Source of the DNA: Candidatus Limnocylindria bacterium
Lineage (GTDB): Bacteria; Chloroflexota; Limnocylindria; QHBO01
Reading direction: 5' to 3'
Assembly (NCBI GenBank): GCA_041499395.1
Contig: JBGQKH010000001.1
Location: 1-56,926, forward strand
DNA length: 56,926 bases
Position 1 is the stretch's first letter. Each line of letters begins with the position of its first letter. The position numbers and the translations under genes were made by a program. This document shows, piece after piece, positions 15,433 through 33,067 of this stretch. The notes under the pieces are model-generated. The model was not told the origin of the DNA. It did not search any database and worked only from the letters and a program-made list of their open reading frames with translations.

Positions 15433-17780
15433 TCCCCGTCCTCGTCGGGTCCGATCTCGCCTCCCCAACCGTCGGGCATGATGAGGACCTCGCGGAAGCG
15501 GCTGCCGTCCGCCGGGCCGACGATGCCGCGGTCCTCCATCTGGTCGAGGATCCGCGCCGCGCGGGCATAGCCGATCCGTAGCCGGCGCTGGAGGAGCGAG
15601 GCGGACGCCTTGTCGGATCGACGCACGATGTCGACGGCTGTGGTCAGCAGCGCGTCGCCGCCATCCTCCTCGTCGCCGGGGCGTCCCCCGGGCTTGCCAT
15701 CGCGCTTGGGGGCGGTGATCTCCGGGCGGTACTGGGGTGCGCCCTGCCCGCGCCAGTGGCGGGCCACCGTCTCGATCTCATGATCGGTGACGAGGACCCC
15801 CTGCAGGCGCACCGCGCGCGGCGCATCGATCGGCTGGTAGAGCATGTCCCCGCGGCCGAGGAGGTCCTCGGCGCCGACCGTGTCGAGGATCGTGCGCGAG
15901 TCGACGCCGCTCGTCATCGCGAAGGCGATCCGGGACGGGATGTTGGCCTTGATCAGCCCGGTGATGACCTGGACCGATGGGCGCTGGGTGGCGACGACCA
16001 GGTGAATGCCGGTCGCCCGCGCCAGCTGCGCGATGCGAGTGATGGTCGCCTCGACCTCGTAGGCGCTCACCATCATCAGGTCGGCCAGCTCGTCGATCAC
16101 GATCACGACGTACGGCATCCGCGGCTCGCCCGGCTTGAGCGCCTCGTTGTAGCCGGCGATGTTGCGAACGCCGCGCTGCGCGAACTCGTGGTAGCGGCCC
16201 TCCATCGTGCCAACCGTCCACTTCAGCGCGTTGACCGCCTTGTCGTTGTCGACGATCACCTCGGTCAGCAGGTGCGGGATCCCCTTGTACTGCGCCATCT
16301 CGACGCGCTTGGGGTCGATCAGGATCAGCTTCACCTCGGTCGGCGTGGCCCGCATCAGGAGCGAGCAGATGATCGCGTTCACGCAGACGCTCTTGCCCGA
16401 TCCCGTCGCGCCCGCGATCAGGAGGTGCGGCATTCGTGACAGGTCGGCGCTGAAGGGCTGTCCGGCCACGTCCTGGCCCAGCGCGAAGGCGAGCTTGCTT
16501 CGCGCCGATGCCTCCTCGAAGTTCGGCGAGCCGAGCACCTCCTTGAGCGTCACCAGGTCGAAGGCGCTGTTCGGGATCTCGATCCCGACGTACGGCTCGC
16601 CGGGGATCGGCGCCTGGATCCGGATGCTCCGTGCCTTCAGGTCGAGCGCCAGGTTGTCGGCCAGCCCTTCGATCCGCGAGAGCTTGATCCCCGGCTCGAC
16701 GTCGAGGGCGTACTGCGTCACGACCGGGCCTTCCTGGATGCGCGCCACCTTCACGCCGATCCCGAAGTGCGCGAGCGTCTCGCGGATGCGCTGCCCCTTC
16801 GCCGTCAGGTCCAGCTGCTCCGAGCTGCTGGCCGGCGCGTCGTCCAGGGCGGCGATCTCGGGAAGCTCCCAGGTCCTGGTGTTGGCCTCGAGCGCGGCAT
16901 CGGCGATCGGTGACTGCTCCACCTCGGCCAGGTGCGCCGTCTCCTCGGACTCCAGCTCGTCGACCGTGATCGGCACGGCCAGCGGCGCCTCGCCATCGAC
17001 CGGCATCGGCATCTCGCGCTGGCGCGCTGGTGCCGGGGCCGTCTCTGCCGGTCGCGAGCGACGCAGGATGAGCGGCTCGTCCTCCGCGTCGGCGCCCGAG
17101 CCGAGCGCCGAGCGCACGCGATCGAGGAGCCCGCGCGCCTCCGGAGAGGTCGGCGCGACGACCGGCTCCGGTCGCCCACGTCGCTCCCCGCTCCCCCGCC
17201 GCGCCTCGATCGCCGCGAGCTCCGCGCGCTCCTCACGGCGTCTGAGCCACGCGGCCACCAGGTCGCCCACGGTCATGTTGAAGTAGAGGAGGAGCCCCAC
17301 CACCAGCAGCAGGGCGAGCACGACCCACGCCCCCGCCGAGCCGATCGCGCCGCTGATCAGCGCCGACGCGAGATAGCCGATCTCTCCCCCGCCGTCACCG
17401 GTCTTGACCCCGTCGGCGCCATTGCCGCCGACGAGATGGAGGATCCCGAGCAGCCCGATCGCCATCACGGCGGCCCCACTGGCGGCCATCCAGCGCTCGG
17501 CCGGCATCGTCTTGAGCCAGAGCATGAAGGCGAAGCCGGCGAGCAGGATCGGCGCGAATGCGATCCCCCAGCCGAGCAGGTACGAAACCGAGTCGTGCCA
17601 CGGCTTGACGATCATGCCGGCGTCCGGTGCGAAGAGGGCGATGGTGCTGATGATCGCCGCGACCACCAGCACCAGGGCAACCACCTCGCGGACCACGCGG
17701 CCGCTGATGGTGACGGTGGTGGTTGCTTTGCGTCGCCGCGAGCTGCGGCGGCGGGACCCGTTCGACCGTCGGCTGCTCAC
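15429..17780 (-). CDS. ftsK: DNA translocase FtsK
   Basis: N-terminal TM helices, Walker A GATGSGKS, Walker B VVIDELADLM, gamma domain LLQRRLRIGYARAARILD. Confidence 0.93.
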   Translation of the reverse strand: MSSRRSNGSRRRSSRRRKATTTVTISGRVVREVVALVLVVAAIISTIALFAPDAGMIVKPWHDSVSYLLGWGIAFAPILLAGFAFMLWLKTMPAERWMAASGAAVMAIGLLGILHLVGGNGADGVKTGDGGGEIGYLASALISGAIGSAGAWVVLALLLVVGLLLYFNMTVGDLVAAWLRRREERAELAAIEARRGSGERRGRPEPVVAPTSPEARGLLDRVRSALGSGADAEDEPLILRRSRPAETAPAPARQREMPMPVDGEAPLAVPITVDELESEETAHLAEVEQSPIADAALEANTRTWELPEIAALDDAPASSSEQLDLTAKGQRIRETLAHFGIGVKVARIQEGPVVTQYALDVEPGIKLSRIEGLADNLALDLKARSIRIQAPIPGEPYVGIEIPNSAFDLVTLKEVLGSPNFEEASARSKLAFALGQDVAGQPFSADLSRMPHLLIAGATGSGKSVCVNAIICSLLMRATPTEVKLILIDPKRVEMAQYKGIPHLLTEVIVDNDKAVNALKWTVGTMEGRYHEFAQRGVRNIAGYNEALKPGEPRMPYVVIVIDELADLMMVSAYEVEATITRIAQLARATGIHLVVATQRPSVQVITGLIKANIPSRIAFAMTSGVDSRTILDTVGAEDLLGRGDMLYQPIDAPRAVRLQGVLVTDHEIETVARHWRGQGAPQYRPEITAPKRDGKPGGRPGDEEDGGDALLTTAVDIVRRSDKASASLLQRRLRIGYARAARILDQMEDRGIVGPADGSRFREVLIMPDGWGGEIGPDEDGE

Positions 17781-17787
17781 CGGCGCG

Positions 17788-19452
17788 TCAGACCTCCATC
17801 ACGATCGGCATGATCATCGGGCGCCGCTTCGTGCGCTCGAAGAAGAATCGCGAGAGGGTATCGCGGATCTTCGCCTTGAGGTAGCCGGCCTCCGCGGCGT
17901 GCGCATCCCCCACGGGCTGGAGGAGGGCCTCCGTGAGGTGCTTGCACGCCGCCGCCATGACCGGGTCATCCGGATCGGAGAGGAAGCCACGGCCGACCAG
18001 GTCGGGGCCGGAGACGGCCTGCCCGGTGGCGCGGTCGACGGTGAGGGCGACCATCACCACGCCGTCCGAGGCGAGCGCACGCCGGTCGCGGAGCACGACG
18101 CCATCAACCCCGTCGATCGCCGCGATGCCGTCAACCAGGACCGCGCCGGCCGTGACGGACCCCGCCAGGCGCGCCTTCGTGCCGTCGAACTCGACCACCT
18201 GGCCGTTCTCCAGCACGAAGATGCCGTCGATCGGCACCCCCGCCCCCTCCGCCAGGAGGCCGTGCTGGACGAGCATCCGGTATTCGCCGTGGACCGGGAT
18301 GAAGTGGCGCGGCTTGACGAGCCCGAGCATCAGCTTCAGCTCCTCACGGGAGCCGTGGCCCGACACGTGGCAATGCTTGAGCGGCTCGTAATGGACCATC
18401 GCGCCCTCCTTGAAGAGGTTGTCGATGGTCTTCGCGACGGCCTCCTCGTTGCCGGGGATCGGCGAGGCGGAGATGATCACGGTGTCGCCCGGCTCGACCG
18501 TGATCGAGCGGTGGTCGCGGTTGCTCATCCGGGTCAGCCCGGACATCGGCTCCCCCTGGGACCCGGTCGTCATCACGACCAGCTTGTCCTTGGGAATCCG
18601 GTTCAGCCCGTCCTTGCCCGAGAGGGTCCCCTCGCGCGGATCGAGGTAGCCGAGCTCGAGCGCGATGGCGATGTTCTGCTCCATGCTGCGCCCCAGCGCC
18701 ACCATCTTGCGCCGGCTCGCCCAGGCGGCGTCGAGCACCTGCTGCACGCGGCCGATGTTGCTCGCGAAGGTGGCCACGATCACGCGCCCTGCCGCCTCGC
18801 GCACCAGCTGGTTGAGCGACTCCCCCACCGTCGTCTCAGACAGGGTGTAGCCCTCGCGCTCCGCTCGCGTCGAGTCGGAGAGGAGAAACTCGACCCCGTG
18901 GTTGCCAATCTCGGCGATCAGGCCCAGGTCGGCGCGCCGGCCGTCCGGCGGGGTGTGGTCGAACTTGAAGTCGCCGGTGACGACGACCGTGCCGAGCGGG
19001 GTGCGGATCGCGAAGCCGAGCCCGTCGGGGATCGAGTGGTTCACCCGGAAGGGTGTGATCGCGAACGCGCCGATCGTGAATTCGACCGCCGGCTCGACTA
19101 CCACGAGGCGGGTCTGGCCGAGCAGCTTGTGCTCCTTCAGCTTGCCGGTCACCAGGCCCGCGGTCAGGCGGCTGGTGTAGATCGGCGTGCCGGGGATCTG
19201 CGGCAGGACGTAGGGAAGGCCACCGGTGTGGTCCTCGTGGCCGTGGGTCAGCAGGATGGCGCGGACGCGCTCGCGGTTCTCGCGGAGGTAGGTAGCGTCG
19301 GGAATGACGAGGTCGATCCCGAGCATCTCCTGATCGGGGAAGGCAAGTCCGCAGTCGACGACCAGGATCTCCCCGGCCGCTTCGATGACGGTGATGTTCT
19401 TGCCGACCTCGCCCACCCCGCCGAGCGGGATGATGCGAAGGGTGTCTGGCAT
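17788..19452 (-). CDS. rnj: Ribonuclease J
   Basis: Metallo-beta-lactamase motif LTHGHEDHTGG, beta-CASP region, HVSGHGS. Confidence 0.93.
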   Translation of the reverse strand: MPDTLRIIPLGGVGEVGKNITVIEAAGEILVVDCGLAFPDQEMLGIDLVIPDATYLRENRERVRAILLTHGHEDHTGGLPYVLPQIPGTPIYTSRLTAGLVTGKLKEHKLLGQTRLVVVEPAVEFTIGAFAITPFRVNHSIPDGLGFAIRTPLGTVVVTGDFKFDHTPPDGRRADLGLIAEIGNHGVEFLLSDSTRAEREGYTLSETTVGESLNQLVREAAGRVIVATFASNIGRVQQVLDAAWASRRKMVALGRSMEQNIAIALELGYLDPREGTLSGKDGLNRIPKDKLVVMTTGSQGEPMSGLTRMSNRDHRSITVEPGDTVIISASPIPGNEEAVAKTIDNLFKEGAMVHYEPLKHCHVSGHGSREELKLMLGLVKPRHFIPVHGEYRMLVQHGLLAEGAGVPIDGIFVLENGQVVEFDGTKARLAGSVTAGAVLVDGIAAIDGVDGVVLRDRRALASDGVVMVALTVDRATGQAVSGPDLVGRGFLSDPDDPVMAAACKHLTEALLQPVGDAHAAEAGYLKAKIRDTLSRFFFERTKRRPMIMPIVMEV

Positions 19453-19459
19453 GGTGCTC

Positions 19460-20128
19460 CTAGAAGAGGGTCATCTGTTCGGTGTCGTCGGCCTCAGCCG
19501 CCGGCGCCGGTGGGGCCGGAACGGCCGGGTCCGCCTGGACCGATTCCACCCGTTCGGCTTCGATCGCGTGGCGGGCGGCCAGCAGCGCGGCCGGCAGGCC
19601 GCGCATGTCTGCGAAGAGCGTCTCCCGCAGCGAGGCCTGGTGCAGCGCCGCAGCAGGATGGTACATCGGGAAAACGAAGCGACCGCCGGATCGGCGCAGC
19701 CGCCCATGCACCTCCCCGATGCGGGCGTCGGGAAGGTAGCGCCGCAGTGAATGCCGTCCCAGCGTGACGATCACGGCCGGGTCGAGCGCCGCCTCCTGGC
19801 GATCAAGGTACGGGCGGCAGGCGGAGATCTCCTCCGGCTCCGGATCGCGGTTGGCGGGCGGACGACACTTCACCACGTTGGCGATGAAGACCTGCTCGCG
19901 GCTCCAGCCGATGGCCCGCAGCAGCTCGTCGAGGAGCTGCCCGGCCGGCCCGACGAAGGGCCGCCCGGTGGCGTCCTCGCGCGCCCCCGGACCCTCCCCC
20001 ACCAGCAGCACGTCGCTGAGCGGGTTCCCCTCGCCGGGGACCGTCCGCGTCCGTCCCGCGTGCAGCGGGCAGCGGGTGCAGCCGCTGACCTCGAGTGCGA
20101 CCGCTGCGAGCAGCGCCTCGGGCCCCAT
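19460..20128 (-). CDS. Uracil-DNA glycosylase, family 4
   Basis: GCTRCPLH..PGEGNP..LLVGEGPGAREDATGRPFVGPAGQLL. Confidence 0.85.
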   Translation of the reverse strand: MGPEALLAAVALEVSGCTRCPLHAGRTRTVPGEGNPLSDVLLVGEGPGAREDATGRPFVGPAGQLLDELLRAIGWSREQVFIANVVKCRPPANRDPEPEEISACRPYLDRQEAALDPAVIVTLGRHSLRRYLPDARIGEVHGRLRRSGGRFVFPMYHPAAALHQASLRETLFADMRGLPAALLAARHAIEAERVESVQADPAVPAPPAPAAEADDTEQMTLF

Positions 20129-20133
20129 CGGCG

Positions 20134-22743
20134 TCAGGACTCGCTTGCGCCCGCCTTGGCCATGTGCCGCTCCATCGCCGCCCTGCGGCTCAGGTTGACG
20201 CGGCCCATCCGATCGATCTCGGTCACCACCACCATCAGCTCATCGCCGACGGCGACGACGTCCTCCACCTGCGCGACCCGGTAGTCGGCGAGCTGGCTGA
20301 TGTGCACCAGCCCCTCCTTGCCGGGCATGATCTCGACGAAGGCGCCGAAGTTCATGATCCGGGTCACCTTGCCGAGGTACTCCTTGCCGACCTCGACATC
20401 CTTGGTCAGCCCCTCGATCCAGCGGATCGCCTTCTGCGCATTCTCCTGCGAGACCGACGCGATCTGGATCGTGCCGTCGTCCTCGACGTTGATCTGCGTG
20501 CCCGTCTCGGCGACGATCTGACGGATCACCTTGCCACCGGAGCCGATCACGTCGCGGATCTTGTCGATCGGGATCTTGATGGTCGTGATCCGCGGCGCAT
20601 ACGGCGAGAGCTCGCTGCGGCTGGCGCTGATGACCGCGTTCATCTTGTCGAGGATGAAGAGCCGCGCCACGCGCGCCTGCTCCAGCGCGTCGCGCATCAC
20701 CTGCATGGGGATGCCGCCAACCTTGATGTCCATCTGCAGCGCCGTCACGCCCTCCGCGGTGCCGGCGACCTTGAAGTCCATGTCGCCATAGGCGTCTTCC
20801 TTGCCGCTGATGTCGGTCAGGACGGCGTGGCGGCCCGTGGCGGTGTCAGAGATCAGTCCCATCGCCGCGCCGGCGACGTGCGACTTGATCGGCACGCCCG
20901 CATCCATCAGCGCGAGCGAGGAGCCGCAGGTGCTGGCCATGGAGGTCGAGCCGTTGCTGCTCACCACCTCGCTCACCACGCGGATCGCGTAGGGGAACTC
21001 CTCCGCCGACGGCAGGACGGGCAGCAGGGCGCGCTCGGCGAGCGCACCGTGGCCGATCTCGCGCCGACCGGGGCCGCGCATCGGGCGCGCCTCGCCGACC
21101 GAGTAGGGCGGGAAGTTGTAGTGGTGCATGTACCGCTTCTCGATCTCCGGTGAGATGGTGTCGAGGCGCTGCACGTCGGAGGACGGGCCGAGCGTCGCGA
21201 TCGAGAGCGCCTGCGTCTGGCCGCGAGTGAAGAGGCCGGAGCCGTGGGTGCGGGGCAGGATCCCGACCTCCACGCTGATCGGCCGGATGGTGGTCGTGTC
21301 GCGCCCGTCGATCCGGATATTCTCGGAGAGGACCAGCTCGCGAGAGGTGGCCTTGGTCAGGACGTCCATGAGCGGGGCGCCGATCCCGTGCAGGCGGCGG
21401 ATCTCCTCCATCGAATCGCCCTGCGCGGCCCGGTTGTAGTCGGCCTTGCTGCGGCGGATCTCGGCCGCGATGTCGGTGCGGATCTTCTCGAGCCGCTCGG
21501 TCAGGCCGGTCGTCAGGTCGATGAAGAGCTCGGCCGTCGCCTCGGCGTCGGGCATCGCCCGGTGCGCCGCGGCGTGGTCGCGCCCGAAGACGAACCGGAC
21601 CAGGTCGCCGAGCTTGTAGCTGCCGGCATCGGGATAGAGCTGATACGCGAGCTCCAGCGTGTCGTACACGGCCGCGGGCTTCCAGCCGGCATCCGGTGGC
21701 ATGTGACGCAGCACGAACGGCAGGTCGAACCCGACGTTGTGGGCCACCACCGGCGCGTCCCCGACCCAGGCGGCGAACTTGGTGAGCACCTCGGCCGCAG
21801 TGGGGGCGTTGGCCACGTCCTCGTCGCTGATGCCGTGGATCTGGTGCCCCACGATCGAGCGACCCGGGTTGACGAGCGACTCGAAGCGGTCGACCACCTT
21901 TCCGCCCTGCACGCGGAGCGCGGCCAGGTCGACGATGTAGCCGTTCTCCGGCTTGATGGCGGTCGTCTCAACGTCGATGACGACGAACTCCGCCTTTCCG
22001 TCAGCGAGCGCCCTGCCCAGCTTGACGACCGAATCGGCCTTGGGGCCGAGGAACGGCGTCTTCTTGGCCTTCCCGGCCGTGGCCGCCAGCTTCTCCTGGA
22101 GGTCGATGCTCTGCTGGAGCTCGCGGTGGGCGTATTCGATGGCGTCGGCCATGACCGACTCGGGCAGGATCTTGGCTCCCGCCTCGACCATCATCACGGC
22201 CTCGCGCGTGCCGGCCACGACCAGGTCGAGCGCGCTGTCGGCGAGCTGCGTGACGGTCGGGTTGGTGACGAAGGCGCCGTTGATGTAGCCGACGCGAACC
22301 GCGCCGACCGGTCCCAGGAACGGGATGCTGCTGATCATCAACGCCGCGGAGGCGCCGTTGATGGCGAGGATGTCGGGGTCGTTCTCCTGGTCGGTCGAGA
22401 GGACCGTCAGCACGATCTGGACGTCCTGCTTGTAGCCCTTGGGGAAGAGCGGGCGGATCGGGCGGTCGGTGAGGCGCATCGCCAGGATGGCGGCCTCCGA
22501 CGGGCGCGACTCACGCTTGATGAAGCCGCCGGGGATCTTGCCCGCGGCGTACATGCGCTCCTCGTAGTCAACCGTGAGGGGGAAGAAGTCGATCCCCTCG
22601 CGCGGCTCGGCGGAGACCGCCGTCGCCAGGAGCACGGTGTCGCCCACGCGGACGAGCACCGCTCCATCGGCCTGCTCGGCGAGCTTGCCCGCCTCGAACG
22701 AGAAGGGCTGTCCGCCGATCTCGGCCTCTACCTTGATAGCCAC
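20134..22743 (-). CDS. pnp: Polyribonucleotide nucleotidyltransferase (PNPase) carrying an inserted DEDDh 3'-5' exonuclease domain
   Basis: PH1 ([14 protein letters not shown]), PH2 (IRIDGRD.., [11 protein letters not shown]), KH ([10 protein letters not shown]) and S1 ([15 protein letters not shown]) are present. GTG 22743 is preferred because GGAGGA sits 5 nt upstream. The ATG at 22773 gives the 879-aa ORF-track protein used for residue numbering in this report. Confidence 0.93.
21499..21996 (-). other. In-frame DnaQ/epsilon-like DEDDh exonuclease domain inserted in the PNPase alpha-helical linker
   Basis: Exo [10 protein letters not shown] (D267, E269), Exo [15 protein letters not shown] (D350), Exo [17 protein letters not shown] (H404, D409). 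Numbering follows the 879-aa ORF. Confidence 0.85.
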
Positions 22744-22963
22744 TGATTCCTCCAGATGTCTTGCTTGTGCCATGCGGCCCGGCGCTCGGCCCGCACTCGA
22801 CCCCTGGCTTCCCCAGGGTGGCGGGCGGCGGCCTGTGCGGGCACGGATGGCGGGTGTTGGGCGGGCGCCTCAGGCGCCCGATGGTCCGGCATGGTTCCCT
22901 GGCCGGATCTGCGCGACCCCGAGCCGGTGCGGCTCGCGGGTCGTCTGCACGACGTGTGCGTGG
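22744..22963 (-). promoter_or_regulatory. Structured rpsO-pnp intergenic leader (several GC hairpins)
   Basis: Minus strand carries GTCGT-GCAG-ACGAC, GAGCCG-CAC-CGGCTC, GGGCGCC-TGA-GGCGCCC (22862-22880) and CCCTGG-GGAAG-CCAGGG. It occupies the position of the E. coli rpsO terminator and pnp autoregulatory hairpin. Confidence 0.4.
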
Positions 22964-23233
22964 TTAGCGGCGCAGTCCCAGCCGACCGATCACCGCGCGG
23001 TAGCGATCCACGTCATTTCGGACGAGGTAGGCCAGCAGCCTTCGGCGCTGACCGACGAGCTTGAGCAGCCCGCGACGCGAGTGGTTGTCGTTCTGGTAGG
23101 TGCGCAGATGCTCCGTGAGCGACTTGATCCGCTCGGTGAGGAGCGCAATCTGGACCTCGGGGGAGCCGGTGTCGCCATCGTGCGTGGCGTAGTCGTCGAT
23201 GATTGCGCTCTTCGTGTCTCCGGCGAGCGGCAC
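22964..23233 (-). CDS. rpsO: 30S ribosomal protein S15
   Basis: [47 protein letters not shown] 23233 gives the usual 89 aa, with GGAGGA upstream. The ORF-track start at 23257 would add 8 residues. Confidence 0.9.
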
Positions 23234-23257
23234 GTATTCCTCCACTCTTCTTTCCAC

Positions 23258-24246: not shown

Positions 24247-25130
24247 ACCGAATCCAGCACGGGGATGACCGTGCGCGGCTCGAGCAGCCCATTGCTCAGG
24301 AGGCCGATCCCCAGCAGCTCCCCGTCGGCGTAGACCGCGTGTCGCCCGTTGGGGTGATCTCCATGCACCTGGACCGCGGACCCATGCGTGAACCTGCCGG
24401 CCGCATCGGCGTCGAGAGGCAGTGGCGGGAGTCGGAGCAGCGACGCGACCGGGAGGATCACCTCCTCGACGCGTCCCGCGCGGGCCAGCTCCTCGAGCCG
24501 CTCCGGCGTCACGCCGTCCGCGACCCGCAGCCCGGCTGCCTCGGTGCGTCGCAGCGCATGGAGGTGTCCGCCGCAGCCCAGGAGCTCCCCAAGGTCGCGC
24601 GCGATCGACCGGATGTAGGTTCCTGGACCGCAGCGGATCTCGCAGCGCACGTCGAGCCAGCCCTCGCCGCGCTCGATGCCGAGGAGGTCGATCGCGTGGA
24701 CCGTGACCCGTCGTGGCGCCGCCTCGACCGGGGCCCCGGCGCGCGCAGCGCGATGGGCAACCCGTCCGTCGACCTTTCGAGCCGAGAAGGCGGGGGGTCG
24801 CTGCTCGAAGGTCCCCACGAATGAGCCCAGAGCCCGACCCGCCGCCGCCGGGTCCGGCGGGGCCGACCCCACTTCTAGCGGCCCCTGCGCATCGTCGGTT
24901 GCGGAGCGGAGCCCGAGGCGGATCACCGCCTCGTAGCCCTTTGGACCGCCGGTCAGGTCGTCGCTGAATCGGGTGGCAGCCCCCACGAGGATCGGCAGCA
25001 CGCCCGAGGCCAGCGGGTCGAGGGTGCCAGCGTGCCCGATCCGTCGCATTCCGGTCAGGCGGCGGACCAGGTCGACCATGTCATGCGACGTCGGCCCGAC
25101 CGGCTTGTCGAGGTTAACGACCCCGAGCAT
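24243..25130 (-). CDS. truB: tRNA pseudouridine(55) synthase
   Basis: GVVNLDKPVGPTSHD, GHAGTLDPLASGVLP. Confidence 0.92.
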   Translation of the reverse strand: MLGVVNLDKPVGPTSHDMVDLVRRLTGMRRIGHAGTLDPLASGVLPILVGAATRFSDDLTGGPKGYEAVIRLGLRSATDDAQGPLEVGSAPPDPAAAGRALGSFVGTFEQRPPAFSARKVDGRVAHRAARAGAPVEAAPRRVTVHAIDLLGIERGEGWLDVRCEIRCGPGTYIRSIARDLGELLGCGGHLHALRRTEAAGLRVADGVTPERLEELARAGRVEEVILPVASLLRLPPLPLDADAAGRFTHGSAVQVHGDHPNGRHAVYADGELLGIGLLSNGLLEPRTVIPVLDSV

Positions 25131-26091
25131 CGCCGCGGATCAGCTCACGTTCAGCCTCGGCCAGCAGCATGACGCGGGCCTCAGGCAGCGGCCGGTCGAT
25201 GGTGCAGCCCGCGGCGCGTGGATGCCCTCCCCCGCCGAACGCCGCGCAGATGGCGACCGCATCGGCCCGAGCGCTCGTGCGCACGCTGATCCGGGTCTCG
25301 CTCGGGCCGACCTCCTTGAAGAGGGCGTTGATGTCGGCGCTCCGCGTCGAGCCGAGGAGATCGACGAAACCCTCCGACGCGGTCGGCTGCTCCCCCGTCT
25401 TCGCGAGCATGGCGGCGGTCATCGCAGCGTGGACGATCCGTCCGTCCGCGACCTGCTCGACGCCGGCCAGCATCAGGCCCCAAAGGGCCAGCGTGCTGAA
25501 CGGCTTGTCCGCGTAGATCGCGCGGGTCACGGCCGCAAGCGGTGCTCCCGCCTCGATCAGCGCGGCTGCCACGCGCAGCGTCTGGGCAGTGGCGTTCGGG
25601 TGGGCGAACGCGTGCGTGTCCTGCACGATGCCGGCCATCAGCGCCGTGGCGAGGGTTGCGTCGAGCGCAACGCCGAGCTCGGGGAGGAGCAGCGCCACCA
25701 TCTCGCACGTTGCGGCCGCCGCCGGATCGATCCAGACCGCCGAGCCAAAGCCCGGGTTGGTGACGTGATGGTCGACGTTCACGATCCGCGCTCGCGCGAA
25801 CCAATCGGCGCGCTCGGTGACGACCGAGCCGATCCGACTCAGCTCCCCCGCGTCGACCACCACCGCGACGTCAGGCTCGAGGCGCGGCGCGCGTCGCACC
25901 CGCTCGACGCCGGGCAGGAACGTGAGGAACGGGGGCACCGGGTCGCCGCTGACCACCTCGGCCTGCTTTCCAAGGCGCTCCGCGGCGATCGCGATCGCGA
26001 TCGCGGCGCCGAGCGTGTCGCCGTCGGGGTTCTCGTGGCAGAACGTCGAGACCCGATCGGCTCCGCGCAGGACTTCGGCGACCTCGAGCAC
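25114..26091 (-). CDS. nrnA: DHH-family oligoribonuclease / pAp phosphatase NrnA
   Basis: CHENPDGDTLG, NVDHHVTN, DHHA1 GGGH motif (FGGGGHPRAAG). Confidence 0.85.
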   Translation of the reverse strand: MLEVAEVLRGADRVSTFCHENPDGDTLGAAIAIAIAAERLGKQAEVVSGDPVPPFLTFLPGVERVRRAPRLEPDVAVVVDAGELSRIGSVVTERADWFARARIVNVDHHVTNPGFGSAVWIDPAAAATCEMVALLLPELGVALDATLATALMAGIVQDTHAFAHPNATAQTLRVAAALIEAGAPLAAVTRAIYADKPFSTLALWGLMLAGVEQVADGRIVHAAMTAAMLAKTGEQPTASEGFVDLLGSTRSADINALFKEVGPSETRISVRTSARADAVAICAAFGGGGHPRAAGCTIDRPLPEARVMLLAEAERELIRGDARGR

Positions 26092-29901: not shown

Positions 29902-31026
29902 TCAGACCTTCGGCAGCCTCGTCAGGTCCTGGATCGTGATCAGGATCACCAGCATCATGAGCACCATGAAGCCGGTCAGGTAGATGAGCGCCTCGCGCGC
30001 AGCCGAGAGGCGACGGCGACGAATCGCCTCGATCGCGACCACCGCGATCCGTCCGCCGTCGAGCGGCGGGAAGGGCAGGATGTTCAGCACCGCAAGATTG
30101 ACCGAAAGCACGGCCACGAAGGTGAGCTGCGTGAAGAGCGGCTCCCGCAGCACCTCCCCGGTGACCTGGGCGATCCCGATCGGGCCCATCGCGCCGCCGC
30201 TGTCAGGGGCAAGCCCGAGCAGGCCGGCCACGGCGGTCCCGAGCCCGACGGGGATCTGCGACGCGACGCCGGCCGCCTGGCTGAATCCCTGCCCGATGGC
30301 CTCCAACGGGTTGCCCGCCCGCGCCGGGGCCAGCACGATCGTCGATCGCAGCTGGAACCCGACCGCCCCCAGCCCGGCCGCGCGCTGCGCATCGGTGAGA
30401 TGGCGCGGTCGAACCGTTACGTCGACCGGCGACCCGTCCCGCTCGAGGTTGAGGGTGACGAGGTTCCCCGCCCGGTCGGCGATGTAGCCGATCAGCGTGT
30501 CGCGCAGCGCGAAGTGCTTGCCATCGGCCCCGAGGATCCGGTCGTTTACCTTCAGCACCCCTTCCGCGGGACTGTTGGCCTGGATCCCGGTGACGGTCAG
30601 CGGCGGCGCGGCGATCGGCTCGGGGACGGTGAAGGCCCAGGCGAAGAGGACCGTGGCGAGCAGGAAGTTCATCACCACGCCGGCGACGAGGACGAGGATT
30701 CGGACCCAGATCGGCTTGCGGTTGAAGGCGCCCTGCATCGCCTTCTCGATGGCCGGCTCGGAGAGGCCGCGCTCACGCAGCTTCTCCGCCTCCGACTCGC
30801 CGTCCTCGCCGAGCATCTTCACGAAGCCGCCGAGCGGGATCCAGTTGAGCGAGTAGCGGGTGCCGTGCCAGGTCACCGAGGTGATGCGCGGCGGGAAGCC
30901 GATCCCGAACTCCTCCACCGTGATCCCGGCCCGCTTGGCAGCGATGAAGTGCCCGAACTCGTGGACCAGGACGAGCACGACGAGGATGCCGATGAAGGCG
31001 AGGATCGTCTGGAGCGTCTCCATCAT
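29902..31026 (-). CDS. rseP: RIP (site-2) zinc metalloprotease RseP
   Basis: HEFGHF, PDZ segment, NILPFPPLDGG. Confidence 0.9.
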   Translation of the reverse strand: MMETLQTILAFIGILVVLVLVHEFGHFIAAKRAGITVEEFGIGFPPRITSVTWHGTRYSLNWIPLGGFVKMLGEDGESEAEKLRERGLSEPAIEKAMQGAFNRKPIWVRILVLVAGVVMNFLLATVLFAWAFTVPEPIAAPPLTVTGIQANSPAEGVLKVNDRILGADGKHFALRDTLIGYIADRAGNLVTLNLERDGSPVDVTVRPRHLTDAQRAAGLGAVGFQLRSTIVLAPARAGNPLEAIGQGFSQAAGVASQIPVGLGTAVAGLLGLAPDSGGAMGPIGIAQVTGEVLREPLFTQLTFVAVLSVNLAVLNILPFPPLDGGRIAVVAIEAIRRRRLSAAREALIYLTGFMVLMMLVILITIQDLTRLPKV

Positions 31027-32171
31027 GCTGCGCCACCCAGGCCTAGCTGGACCGAAAGAGCGGCGCGCACCTCCGCGTCGAGCGCAACGATCCCATCGAG
31101 CGTCGGCTCGGCCGCGGCGCCCCAGCGCTCGATCGCCTCCACGATCATGGCCGTGATCCGCGGAAAGCTGATCGTCCCGGCCAGGAATGCGGTCACGGCG
31201 ACCTCGTCGGCGGCGTTGAGGATCGTCCCGCGATTGCCGCCCGCGGCCGCGGCGGCGCGAGCGGCGTCATACGCAGGATAGCTGCCGGGCGCCAGCGGGC
31301 TGAACTGGAACTCTCCCCAATCCTCCGGTGACCCATGCCGAGCCGGCGACGGAAGGCGGTCGGGGTAAGTCAGCGCGTATTGGATGGGGAGGCGCATGTC
31401 GGGGAGCCCGAGCTGTGCCTTGTAGGAGCCATCGGTGAACTCGACCAGCGAGTGCACCAGGCTCTGGGGGTGGATCACGGCCTGAATCCTATCCCAGGGC
31501 ATGCGGTACAGCCATTTCGCCTCGATCGCCTCGAAGGCCTTGTTGACCAGCGTCGCCGAGTCGATCGTGATCTTGGGGCCCATCCGCCAGGTCGGGTGGG
31601 CGAGGGCCTCCGCCGCGGTGACCGTGGCAAGCTCGGCTGCTGGCCGACCGCGGAACGGTCCGCCCGAGGCGGTGAGGATCAGACGCGCCACGTCGCTGAG
31701 CCGTTCCCCCGCCAGGCACTGCCAGATCGCCGAGTGCTCCGAGTCGATCGGCCGCAGACGGTCGAGCGGGTCGCCCCCCAGTCCGATCAGCACGTGCTCG
31801 ATCAGGTGGCCACCGGTGACCAGCGTCTCCTTGTTGGCGAGGGCGACCCGCCGTCCACTGGCGAGCGCGGCGAGCACCGCCGGCAGCGCGGTCATGCCTG
31901 TCGTCGCCACGACCACGATCTCGGCGCCTTCGAGGGTGGCTAACTCCTCGAGGCCGCCCGCTGCCCAGCGCTCGCGGGGCAGGTCGCGCGGCCGCGCATC
32001 GGCGCACCAGGCCCGGGCCGCCGGCCAGGCATCCAGCTGGTTGCCGAAATCGGCCGAGGCGCGACCGGCCGCCAGGCCCACCAGCTTGAACCGGTCCGCA
32101 TGCGCTGCGATCACTTCGAGCGTCTGGCGGCCGATCGACCCGGTCGAGCCCAGCACGACGACCCCGGTCAC
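31023..32171 (-). CDS. dxr: 1-deoxy-D-xylulose-5-phosphate reductoisomerase
   Basis: VLGSTGSIGRQTL, ALANKETLV, IDSEHSAI. GTG 32171 forms a GTGA overlap with the cdsA stop. The 656-aa ORF extension overlaps cdsA and was discarded. Confidence 0.92.
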   Translation of the reverse strand: MTGVVVLGSTGSIGRQTLEVIAAHADRFKLVGLAAGRASADFGNQLDAWPAARAWCADARPRDLPRERWAAGGLEELATLEGAEIVVVATTGMTALPAVLAALASGRRVALANKETLVTGGHLIEHVLIGLGGDPLDRLRPIDSEHSAIWQCLAGERLSDVARLILTASGGPFRGRPAAELATVTAAEALAHPTWRMGPKITIDSATLVNKAFEAIEAKWLYRMPWDRIQAVIHPQSLVHSLVEFTDGSYKAQLGLPDMRLPIQYALTYPDRLPSPARHGSPEDWGEFQFSPLAPGSYPAYDAARAAAAAGGNRGTILNAADEVAVTAFLAGTISFPRITAMIVEAIERWGAAAEPTLDGIVALDAEVRAALSVQLGLGGAA

Positions 32172-33067
32172 AGGCTGAAGCCGGCGACCAGCAGGGCGTA
32201 GCCGACGAGCACGGGGGCGGCGAAGAGGAACGAATCGATCCGATCGAGGATGCCGCCGTGCCCGGGCACGAGGAACCCGGACTCCTTGCGGCCGGCGGCA
32301 CGCTTCACCATCGACTCGGCCAAGTCGCCCGCCTGCGCCGACATCCCGATCAGCGGACCGATCACGAGCGGCTGCCAGGGGTCCAGCCCGACCATCGCGG
32401 CACCGATGCCGGCGGCCACGGTCGCAGCCAGCAGCCCACCGACCAGCCCCTCGACCGTCTTCGATGGGCTGATGTGGTCGATCAGGTGGCGACGGCCGAG
32501 CCACCGCCCGGTCAGGTACGCGCCGGAGTCGTAGCCCCATACGACGAGCAGGAGGAGGAGCAGCCAGGCCGCGCCGGCATGGAGCCCGAGGGCGCCGATC
32601 GGGGTGGCCGAGGAGCCACCCGACGGAGCGAGGTGCCCGACCATGGCGATGAACGGAGCGAGCAGGCCGATGTACGCCACCCCGAACGCGGTCACGGCCC
32701 ACGTCAGGAATCCTTTCCGCGGATCCGACCGGGCGAAGCCGGCGATCCCGAGCACGACCGCCGCGCCGGCATAGGCGACCGTCGGCAGGCCGGGCGGCGT
32801 GCTGGCTCGCAGCATGTCTGCGAGGGTGCCCCCAACGAGGGCCTGGTTTGCGGCCACGAGTCCTGCTGCCGCCACGACGACGCACGCTCCAAGTGCAATG
32901 ACCTGGGGCGGCTCGAAGCCGGCCGCATCGAGCAACGAGATCAGCTCCACCATGGCAAGGAAGACGAGCAGCCCAACCAGGAGCGAGAGCCATGGCTCGC
33001 CCAGCAACGCGATCGCGACGACGATCGGGGCGAGGACCGCGGCGCTGATCAGGCGGGTCGTCAGCAT
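32168..33067 (-). CDS. cdsA: Phosphatidate cytidylyltransferase
   Basis: Multi-TM protein with SMVKRAAGRKESGFLVPGHGGILDRIDS signature. Confidence 0.88.
   Translation of the reverse strand: MLTTRLISAAVLAPIVVAIALLGEPWLSLLVGLLVFLAMVELISLLDAAGFEPPQVIALGACVVVAAAGLVAANQALVGGTLADMLRASTPPGLPTVAYAGAAVVLGIAGFARSDPRKGFLTWAVTAFGVAYIGLLAPFIAMVGHLAPSGGSSATPIGALGLHAGAAWLLLLLLVVWGYDSGAYLTGRWLGRRHLIDHISPSKTVEGLVGGLLAATVAAGIGAAMVGLDPWQPLVIGPLIGMSAQAGDLAESMVKRAAGRKESGFLVPGHGGILDRIDSFLFAAPVLVGYALLVAGFSL

Follow-up and report, generated by a model that had tools for sequence, protein, structure and literature searches.

Polynucleotide phosphorylase (PNPase) is among the most conserved and best-studied RNA-degrading machines, and to our knowledge the same layout of five domains is taken to hold universally, from bacteria to human mitochondria. 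The pnp gene carried by a 56,926-nucleotide stretch of DNA from a Candidatus Limnocylindria bacterium (contig JBGQKH010000001.1 of assembly GCA_041499395.1; the whole stretch is referred to below as the window) raises the question of whether this enzyme can hold a complete second nuclease of a different kind, and of what such a nuclease would do there. The original prediction, made from the sequence alone, was that an in-frame block of the gene encodes a complete DEDDh 3'-5' exonuclease domain, resembling the epsilon subunit of DNA polymerase III (Pol III), inserted in the helical linker of an otherwise complete and collinear PNPase. Profile matches to both families, an in silico excision and a structural model in which the insert adopts a fold of the DinG, PolC and epsilon type all bear this out.

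A DEDDh exonuclease domain within PNPase

The gene is one uninterrupted open reading frame of 879 codons plus a stop codon (coordinates of this and other features are collected in Table 1). All of the peptide motifs that had been quoted lie in this single frame, the interval assigned to the insert coincides exactly with residues 260-425, and the numbers D267 and E269 given to the first catalytic pair are correct in it; the quoted range of 869-879 amino acids for the length of the product reflects the choice of start codon, homologues being called at 860-915 amino acids. Pfam finds two RNase_PH domains, RNase_PH_C, KH_1 (residues 730-787), S1 (residues 793-864) and RNase_T in the 879-residue protein. 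The PNPase equivalog models TIGR03591 and NF008805 of NCBIfam score 969 and 971 bits against curated cut-offs of 525 and 471, which places the protein in the PNPase family, and they match in two stretches, the second of which begins at residue ~415-441 and model position ~236-264. The PNPase layout of two RNase PH modules with a helical domain, followed by KH and S1, is present, with the helical domain split by the insert. The phosphate-binding (S-T/S-S) and metal-binding or catalytic (D...D.K) residues of the second RNase PH module align with those of solved PNPases, and S609, T610, S611, D664, D666 and K668 (in NGSTSM and GDMDFK) are invariant in all 33 full-length sequences that we compared. 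The RNA-binding elements (the channel loop, the GxxG motif of KH, and S1) are all intact, and the first RNase PH module has a mean pairwise identity of 0.78 among the same 33 sequences. This pnp is the housekeeping PNPase of the genome.

The insert itself matches RNase_T (PF00929) at residues 264-417 over the whole model (positions 1-164 of 164; E = 2.2e-24; 87.3 bits against a gathering cut-off of 24), a match far beyond chance, and so the possibility that the block would have no counterpart among exonuclease profiles can be set aside, as can any doubt about the flanks, which carry the PNPase equivalog scores of ~970 bits. The H-x4-D form of the Exo III motif, with His and not Tyr, defines the DEDDh as opposed to the DEDDy subtype. 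The features that mark the DEDDh superfamily are all found here: the five catalytic residues, the full-length PF00929 match and, as predicted, an RNase H-like alpha/beta fold. The catalytic Asp of Exo II, D350, is moreover invariant across 56 and 81 DEDDh sequences in two further alignments.

Where the domain enters PNPase can be stated closely. When residues 259-421 were excised in silico, the remaining 716-residue protein matched TIGR03591 in one stretch (residues 19-702 to positions 2-688 of 689) and the score rose from 969 bits for the native protein to 986 bits; because the shortened protein matches the PNPase equivalog end to end in this way, the insertion is a clean one. Solved PNPases align up to residue ~233-236 and pick up again at ~466, and the N-terminal junction maps to residues ~227-229 of Escherichia coli PNPase. 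The order of elements predicted by AlphaFold is the last helix of the first RNase PH module (205-233), an AGKAKK loop, helix a1 (246-257), the exonuclease fold (262-421; beta-beta-beta-alpha-beta-alpha-beta-alpha), three helices (424-484) and then the second RNase PH module. The helices that follow the insert give a weak match to PF03726 at model positions 57-81 (48-80 in L037, a locus of a second clade described below), which is the C-terminal part of the helical-domain model. The exonuclease thus appears, in the model, to split the helical domain near its N-terminal end, after helix a1; that the insert lies within the helical domain was anticipated correctly, but it does not lie in the middle. 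A model of residues 206-490 has a predicted local distance difference test score (pLDDT) of 92.0 and a predicted template modelling score (pTM) of 0.83, and in it linker helices stand on either side of the exonuclease fold. The full-length AlphaFold model, built on an alignment without diverse PNPases, is poor in the second RNase PH module and S1 (pLDDT 62.9) and was used only for the secondary structure of residues 205-484. The position that MAFFT gave to residues 230-266 of the E. coli helical domain, within the exonuclease block, is arbitrary, and the insertion was defined by the excision instead. No solved PNPase has a comparable insert, all of the PDB chains found being of 784 amino acids or fewer.

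The relatives of the insert point to one part of the DEDDh superfamily. Its PDB sequence relatives include the exonuclease domain of Thermotoga PolC (2P1J, E = 2e-23), PolC (9QPC) and Staphylococcus aureus DinG (8ZEF), among others, and further the Pol III epsilon subunit, a CRISPR-associated DnaQ domain, Cas2-DEDDh and ExoX. Foldseek, given the model of residues 206-490, ranks DinG, PolC, DnaQ and epsilon domains first, with a probability of 1.00 to DinG, PolC and epsilon and a root-mean-square deviation of 2.2 Å over 171 columns to PolC (9QRN); the solved matches of DinG, PolC and DnaQ type include 9QRN and 9II8/8ZEF. ExoI is also among the sequence or fold neighbours, and RNase T ranks 21 or lower in Foldseek, with TREX lower too. 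Orn and REXO2 are absent from the 11 PDB sequence matches (E <= 1e-3) and from the top 50 Foldseek matches, and on sequence and fold similarity the insert falls outside the Orn/REXO2 family. Among NCBIfam exonuclease models the DnaQ-GIY-YIG family PRK07883 comes first (142 bits), then DinG (124 bits), then PolC (118 bits), each short of what membership takes (495 bits for PRK07883.1-4, 789 for DinG and 873 for PolC). No helicase, polymerase or GIY-YIG partner domain was found by Pfam in the 879-residue protein. The scores for the epsilon subunit are likewise below the cut-offs (76.4 against 222.7 bits for TIGR01406; 70.4 against 71.5 bits for TIGR00573), and the domain is internal to a PNPase. 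In genomes, the nearest relatives that are not PNPases are DinG-type helicase fusions, DnaQ-GIY-YIG proteins, a Cas2-DEDDh and PolC, the first two being the closest within the Chloroflexota. Judged by these similarities, the insert is a DEDDh superfamily member from the neighbourhood of epsilon, PolC and DinG, and would seem to be the orthologue of no named enzyme.

Set beside canonical bacterial PNPases (from E. coli, Caulobacter crescentus, Streptomyces antibioticus and Staphylococcus; for example PDB 3GCM, 4AM3, 1E3H and 5YJJ), the Limnocylindria protein has the same collinear order of first RNase PH module, helical domain, second RNase PH module, KH and S1, the same conserved phosphate and metal residues and the same rpsO-pnp locus, but adds a DEDDh domain of ~165 residues inside the helical domain. 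The PolC proofreading domain, the N-terminal exonuclease of DinG, DnaQ-GIY-YIG (PRK07883) and Cas2-DEDDh share with the insert its fold and its five catalytic residues, and in PolC the epsilon-like domain is also an internal insertion (in the PHP domain) of another nucleotidyl-transfer enzyme. Here, however, the host is a phosphorolytic RNase and not a polymerase, helicase or repair nuclease, and the partner domains of those proteins are missing.

Authenticity, distribution and maintenance of the fusion

An obvious concern with an architecture of this kind is that it might result from chimeric assembly, or from sequencing errors that let two adjacent genes be read as one. Our first homologue search returned only fragments of the fusion (289-472 amino acids), some of which are named 'exonuclease domain-containing protein', and such database entries could be taken to favour an artefact. 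The fragments, however, come from long-read assemblies in which the neighbouring genes are likewise broken by frameshifts, and frameshifted tails are visible in the alignment. We therefore scanned one genome per GTDB species, aligning the insert together with its junctions, and ~50 loci match across both junctions; in 32 of these, many from short-read assemblies, the frame is open and complete over 860 codons or more. A search for full-length proteins yielded at least 120 clusters (at 90% identity), and all of those listed are 860-915 amino acids long and have PF00929 together with PNPase domains. Intact copies in independent species-level genomes, so many clusters of one architecture and the conservation of both junctions at the protein level rule out chimeric assembly, frameshifting and two-gene read-through, including a misassembly, frameshift or stop that would separate the exonuclease from pnp, and we give next to no credence to an artefact.

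In some long-read contigs of metagenome-assembled genomes (L001, L002, L027 and L029) many genes are split by frameshifts (rbfA, the DHH gene, rnj and pnp), and pnp appears as two or three fragments, some entered as 'exonuclease domain-containing protein, partial'. The clusters are named 'polyribonucleotide nucleotidyltransferase [Candidatus Limnocylindria bacterium]' by NCBI, and JGI often names intact fusions of ~870 amino acids (P0296, P0301, P0305 and many more) 'DNA polymerase III epsilon subunit family exonuclease', which is a systematic misannotation of the whole protein. Our finding flags this name and 'exonuclease domain-containing protein' as ones under which a PNPase may be filed. 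In the literature, including the main paper on Limnocylindria genomics, we found no description of a PNPase-DEDDh protein and no experiment on one, most papers in subscription journals being outside the search. The suggestion that the architecture had not been described holds to that extent, but the protein was already in sequence databases under routine, automatic names and is standard in Limnocylindria; both of its parts belong to well-known families, and what the combination does is inferred.

Nearly all loci with the fusion are labelled Candidatus Limnocylindria, Limnocylindrales or Chloroflexota. Rather than being rare, the fusion is the form of pnp that the whole class Candidatus Limnocylindria carries as standard, and members of this class are, according to the taxonomic literature, common in freshwater and in soil. 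The sequences fall into two clades. The most distant fusions (P0123, encoded just downstream of rpsO, and others) are nearest to clade 2, and an exhaustive search for representatives returned only 26 at E < 1e-30, in which the fusion-type ones are all nearest to clade 2 and no independent PNPase-DEDDh fusion was found. A few loci (L015, L021, L039, L047, L050 and P0319) are binned as Steroidobacteraceae, Patescibacteria, Polarisedimenticolia, Sulfotelmatobacter or Zixibacteria. Two of them, L039 and L050, have complete open frames and PNPase cores that are 87-90% identical to those of Limnocylindrales; they are probably mis-binned, an explanation that fits this identity better than horizontal spread does, and we have rejected them as evidence for the fusion in other phyla.

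The junctions are collinear in all clades, the distant P0123 included, the divergence of the PNPase core correlates with that of the exonuclease insert (r = 0.94), and wherever the sequence before pnp is long enough, rpsO is found upstream of it at 70-96% identity, as it is in L001, L002 and L083. From these three findings we conclude that the insertion happened once, long ago, and that the fused gene has since been inherited vertically at the rpsO-pnp locus throughout the class; that the insertion is real, ancient and single is, in our judgement, almost certain. The G+C content, the G+C content at third codon positions (GC3; 0.93-0.96) and the skew are unchanged between the insert and the rest of pnp, in keeping with the host-like codon usage that had been remarked on, and this uniformity, together with the co-divergence, leads us to reject a recent horizontal insertion or a mobile element.

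Both active sites appear to have been kept through this history. The five catalytic residues of the exonuclease (D267, E269, D350, H404 and D409) and the His-Asn of Exo II are invariant in the 33 full-length sequences, in which the pairwise identity of the exonuclease block falls to 40%; in P0125, a fragment from clade 2, the His-Asn before the Phe-Asp of Exo II reads His-Ser, and the catalytic Asp is kept. Ratios of non-synonymous to synonymous substitution (dN/dS) computed over all pairs were inflated by saturated or compressed dS at a GC3 of ~0.95, and were therefore recomputed on 157 close pairs. The pooled dN/dS is 0.23 for the exonuclease block, 0.165 and 0.163 for the first and second RNase PH modules, 0.14 for KH-S1 and 0.30-0.43 for the linker segments. 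Since the catalytic residues are invariant and dN/dS is low, both catalytic centres are maintained and are under purifying selection.

The pnp locus

The gene sits in a housekeeping block (dxr, rseP, nusA, infB, DHH/DHHA1, truB, ribF, rpsO, pnp, udg, rnj, ftsK), several members of which (rpsO, truB, rnj, nusA and infB) are its neighbours in RNA metabolism. The order rpsO-pnp-udg-rnj is conserved in clade 1, so that a DNA-repair gene, udg, lies between two RNase genes, and udg is probably co-transcribed with pnp. In clade 2 an aspartate-semialdehyde dehydrogenase gene (asd; 6108-7184 in L037) stands between pnp and udg, with udg nearby, and L025 is without udg. Rfam gave no match (E <= 0.1) in the interval 19.0-24.5 kb, including the spacer of ~190 nucleotides between rpsO and pnp (22774..22963), and hence no known pnp leader; a leader or autoregulatory hairpin in this spacer, if one exists, belongs to no described family.

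Table 1. Position of pnp, the parts of its product and neighbouring genes in the window
Feature	Position	Strand	Basis
pnp, PNPase with inserted DEDDh exonuclease domain	20134..22773	-	intact open reading frame, equivalog scores, Pfam domains
First RNase PH module, residues 13-218 (RNase_PH 22-151, RNase_PH_C 154-217), channel loop GGFIKRE	22120..22737	-	Pfam; alignment to solved PNPases
Helical domain, N-terminal part, residues 219-259: end of helix 205-233, AGKAKK motif, helix a1 (246-257)	21997..22119	-	AlphaFold secondary structure; E. coli PNPase alignment
Inserted DEDDh 3'-5' exonuclease domain, residues 260-425 (Pfam RNase_T 264-417 = 21523..21984)	21499..21996	-	PF00929, PDB sequence matches, Foldseek
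Exo I, D267-x-E269 (codons 21973-21975, 21967-21969)	21967..21975	-	unchanged in all 33 homologues; lines up with D-x-E of PolC and DinG
Exo II catalytic Asp D350, in AHNVGFD	21724..21726	-	invariant in 33 of 33 full-length homologues
Exo III, H404-x4-D409 (HRAMPD)	21547..21564	-	invariant in 33 of 33
Helical domain, C-terminal part, residues 426-484: helices 424-441, 448-462, 466-484	21322..21498	-	AlphaFold models; counterpart of E. coli PNPase ~267-306 by alignment
Second (catalytic) RNase PH module, residues 485-715, phosphate-binding NGSTSM and metal/catalytic GDMDFK	20629..21321	-	Pfam; alignment to solved PNPases
KH domain, residues 730-787	20413..20586	-	PF00013, E = 2.6e-11
S1 domain, residues 793-864	20182..20397	-	PF00575, E = 3.8e-18
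rpsO (ribosomal protein S15), directly upstream of pnp	22964..23257	-	open reading frame; marks resident pnp locus
udg, family-4-type uracil-DNA glycosylase, 5 bp downstream of pnp	19460..20128	-	PF03167, E = 6e-38
rnj, RNase J, 7 bp downstream of udg	17788..19452	-	RNase_J beta-CASP, RNase_J_C and Lactamase_B matches; position conserved
DHH/DHHA1 gene (NrnA-like nanoRNase/pAp phosphatase family), downstream of infB, directly upstream of truB	25114..26091	-	in the housekeeping cluster of pnp

Long open reading frames (352-787 amino acids) run antisense to pnp, udg and rnj (21244..22746, 20095..21153 and 17404..19767, all on the plus strand); these are typical of the spurious frames found in DNA of ~70% GC with a GC3 of ~0.95. 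A 656-residue frame (31026..32993, minus strand) has Dxr domains only from residue 278, the 277 residues before them having no Pfam match (E <= 1e-5), and may be an over-extended frame in high-GC DNA or may have an unrecognised N-terminal extension.

Possible roles of the second nuclease

What would a hydrolytic nuclease do within PNPase? Its sequence makes it very probable, in our view, that the inserted domain is a catalytically active hydrolytic 3'-5' exonuclease, and we lean towards a reading in which the protein would act as a bifunctional 3'-end degrader that combines phosphorolysis with tethered hydrolysis; whether the main role lies in RNA decay rather than in DNA transactions is close to an even call, tilted if anything to RNA. 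Going by its family, the protein would form the usual PNPase trimer, and each trimer would then have three hydrolytic exonuclease modules, dependent on Mg, that pack rigidly against its helical domains. In PNPase the helical domain occupies the trimer face opposite KH/S1 and lines a side pore that leads to the active site and is thought to serve nucleoside diphosphates (NDPs) and phosphate and not RNA (Nurmohamed et al. 2009, PMC2723993). The exonuclease modules would accordingly be expected beside this pore, on the ring face opposite the one that captures RNA. RNA would be captured by KH/S1 and undergo phosphorolysis in the channel, and the tethered hydrolytic site might supply, at high local concentration, a second 3'-5' activity that is independent of phosphate and acts on 3' ends which the phosphorolytic site releases or cannot use. 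Candidate substrates are short limit oligonucleotides, ends stalled near structure, and perhaps, at low phosphate, any substrate. Given its DNA-exonuclease ancestry, the domain would be likely to act on the 3' ends of single-stranded DNA (ssDNA) or RNA:DNA hybrids as well.

Several points weigh against such a role in RNA decay. The closest relatives of the insert all belong to DNA metabolism (DinG, PolC, DnaQ-GIY-YIG, Cas2-DEDDh, epsilon and ExoX), and because they do, hydrolysis of RNA by the insert is an assumption; Bacillus subtilis DinG prefers ssDNA and cuts single-stranded RNA only with Mn2+ (PMC12525004). Since there is no match to Orn and RNase T ranks so low, similarity does not support a dedicated RNase or nanoRNase, and the DHH/DHHA1 (NrnA-like) gene in the cluster lowers the need for a built-in oligoribonuclease. 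The exonuclease would, furthermore, lie on the side of the ring remote from where RNA enters, and an RNA 3' end that is held in an RNase PH site cannot reach it at the same time.

A rival reading is a role at DNA ends, in which the domain would trim ssDNA 3' ends, or the 3' end of the RNA strand in RNA:DNA hybrids or R-loops, and would so extend the moonlighting that is documented for PNPase at ssDNA ends in recombination and repair. We consider this possible, if on balance less probable. The repair nuclease family DnaQ-GIY-YIG, DinG and PolC provide the best NCBIfam exonuclease matches, the sequence and fold neighbours are of the same kind (DinG, PolC, Cas-DnaQ, epsilon, ExoX and ExoI), and DinG-type helicase fusions and DnaQ-GIY-YIG proteins are the closest non-PNPase relatives in the Chloroflexota. 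B. subtilis DinG favours ssDNA and RNA:DNA hybrids (PMC12525004), and PNPase degrades the 3' ends of ssDNA and acts in double-strand break repair and recombination (PMC2709576, PMC3241651, PMC5379764). The family-4-type uracil-DNA glycosylase gene closely follows pnp, and both clades conserve this position. The exonuclease may cooperate with the probably co-transcribed glycosylase, cleaning up 3' ends after base excision in a genome of 70% GC. However, asd interrupts this adjacency in clade 2 and L025 is without udg, such that the link may be a coincidence; DEDDh enzymes often act on RNA and DNA alike, which makes ancestry a weak guide; and in the locus flanks examined the fusion is the sole pnp detected, at the canonical rpsO-pnp locus and with all of its RNA-binding modules intact. 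The two roles might also be joined in a covalent, bacterial version of what the exosome does. One ring with three phosphorolytic and three hydrolytic sites could hand RNA that is threaded past the RNase PH sites, or intermediates that are released from them, to the DNA-proofreader-derived exonuclease on the distal face, and could process the 3' ends of ssDNA and R-loops too, coupling RNA decay to genome maintenance. Such coupling is consistent with the conserved, co-located glycosylase, but as a whole we think it unlikely.

It is quite improbable that the DEDDh module is a dedicated nanoRNase that hydrolyses the limit products of 2-5 nucleotides left by PNPase, as Orn or REXO2 do in trans, and so yields mononucleotides within one particle. 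Orn and REXO2 are indeed DEDDh enzymes that cooperate with PNPase in RNA turnover (e.g. PMC7261184, PMC9779919), and the exonuclease would be placed beside the side pore of the RNase PH active site, a possible exit for small products (PMC2723993); but neither enzyme is found among the sequence and fold matches of the insert, which is built like the monomeric epsilon/PolC type and not like the Orn dimer, and the same cluster has its own NrnA-like gene. We give very little credence to a non-catalytic or regulatory module, that is, a lid, sensor or docking platform on the helical domain that gates phosphate and NDPs or recruits partners, with nuclease activity incidental or lost. The helical domain does influence PNPase activity and lines the NDP/phosphate pore (PMC2723993), and in the model the exonuclease packs rigidly against the linker helices. 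The invariance of all five catalytic residues and of the Exo II His-Asn over deep divergence is nevertheless a signature of retained catalysis, and the dN/dS of the insert is close to those of the RNase PH cores.

We return to the bifunctional 3'-end degrader that we favour, and to systems with which it can be compared. The original prediction drew attention to the eukaryotic exosome, and the analogy holds in that the exosome, including that of plants, also brings together a ring of PH domains and hydrolytic 3'-5' activity (Rrp6 and Rrp44) in one particle. In the plant complex Exo9 keeps phosphorolysis alongside hydrolytic partners (PMC5735172). The exosome, however, is a nine-subunit ring whose partners are bound non-covalently, Rrp6 being of the DEDDy type (RNase D family) and Rrp44 having RNB and PIN domains; here a DEDDh domain, as H404 indicates, is inserted covalently, would number three per ring, and has an independent origin. 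Pfam found no RNB or PIN domain in the 879-residue protein, which does not belong with the exosome type, and the likeness is best read as a functional analogy and not as homology of arrangement. A bacterial precedent for PNPase together with a 3'-5' exoribonuclease of the DEDD superfamily in one assembly is the degradosome of C. crescentus, where PNPase and RNase D, a DEDD exoribonuclease, are both recruited by RNase E (PMC4245959); it differs in consisting of separate polypeptides on an RNase E scaffold, and in that RNase D is a DEDDy enzyme with HRDC domains. Orn/REXO2 and RNase T are DEDDh enzymes too and act on RNA 3' ends downstream of PNPase or in parallel with it, but they are homodimeric, stand-alone proteins, and Orn has no significant sequence match with the insert.

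A covalent PNPase-DEDDh enzyme would surprise a specialist in RNA decay. An entire class of bacteria keeps a second, mechanistically different nuclease inside its PNPase with both active sites intact, and the helical domain of PNPase accommodates a folded insertion of 165 residues, a property of use in engineering. Should the second site be active, these bacteria would represent a natural experiment that joins phosphorolytic with hydrolytic degradation of 3' ends within one polypeptide, a result similar to that which eukaryotes obtain through Rrp6 and Rrp44 on the exosome ring. The Limnocylindria enzyme could reveal how cells handle phosphate limitation, structured 3' ends or limit oligonucleotides, and could also show whether evolution can reinforce the debated role of PNPase in DNA repair.

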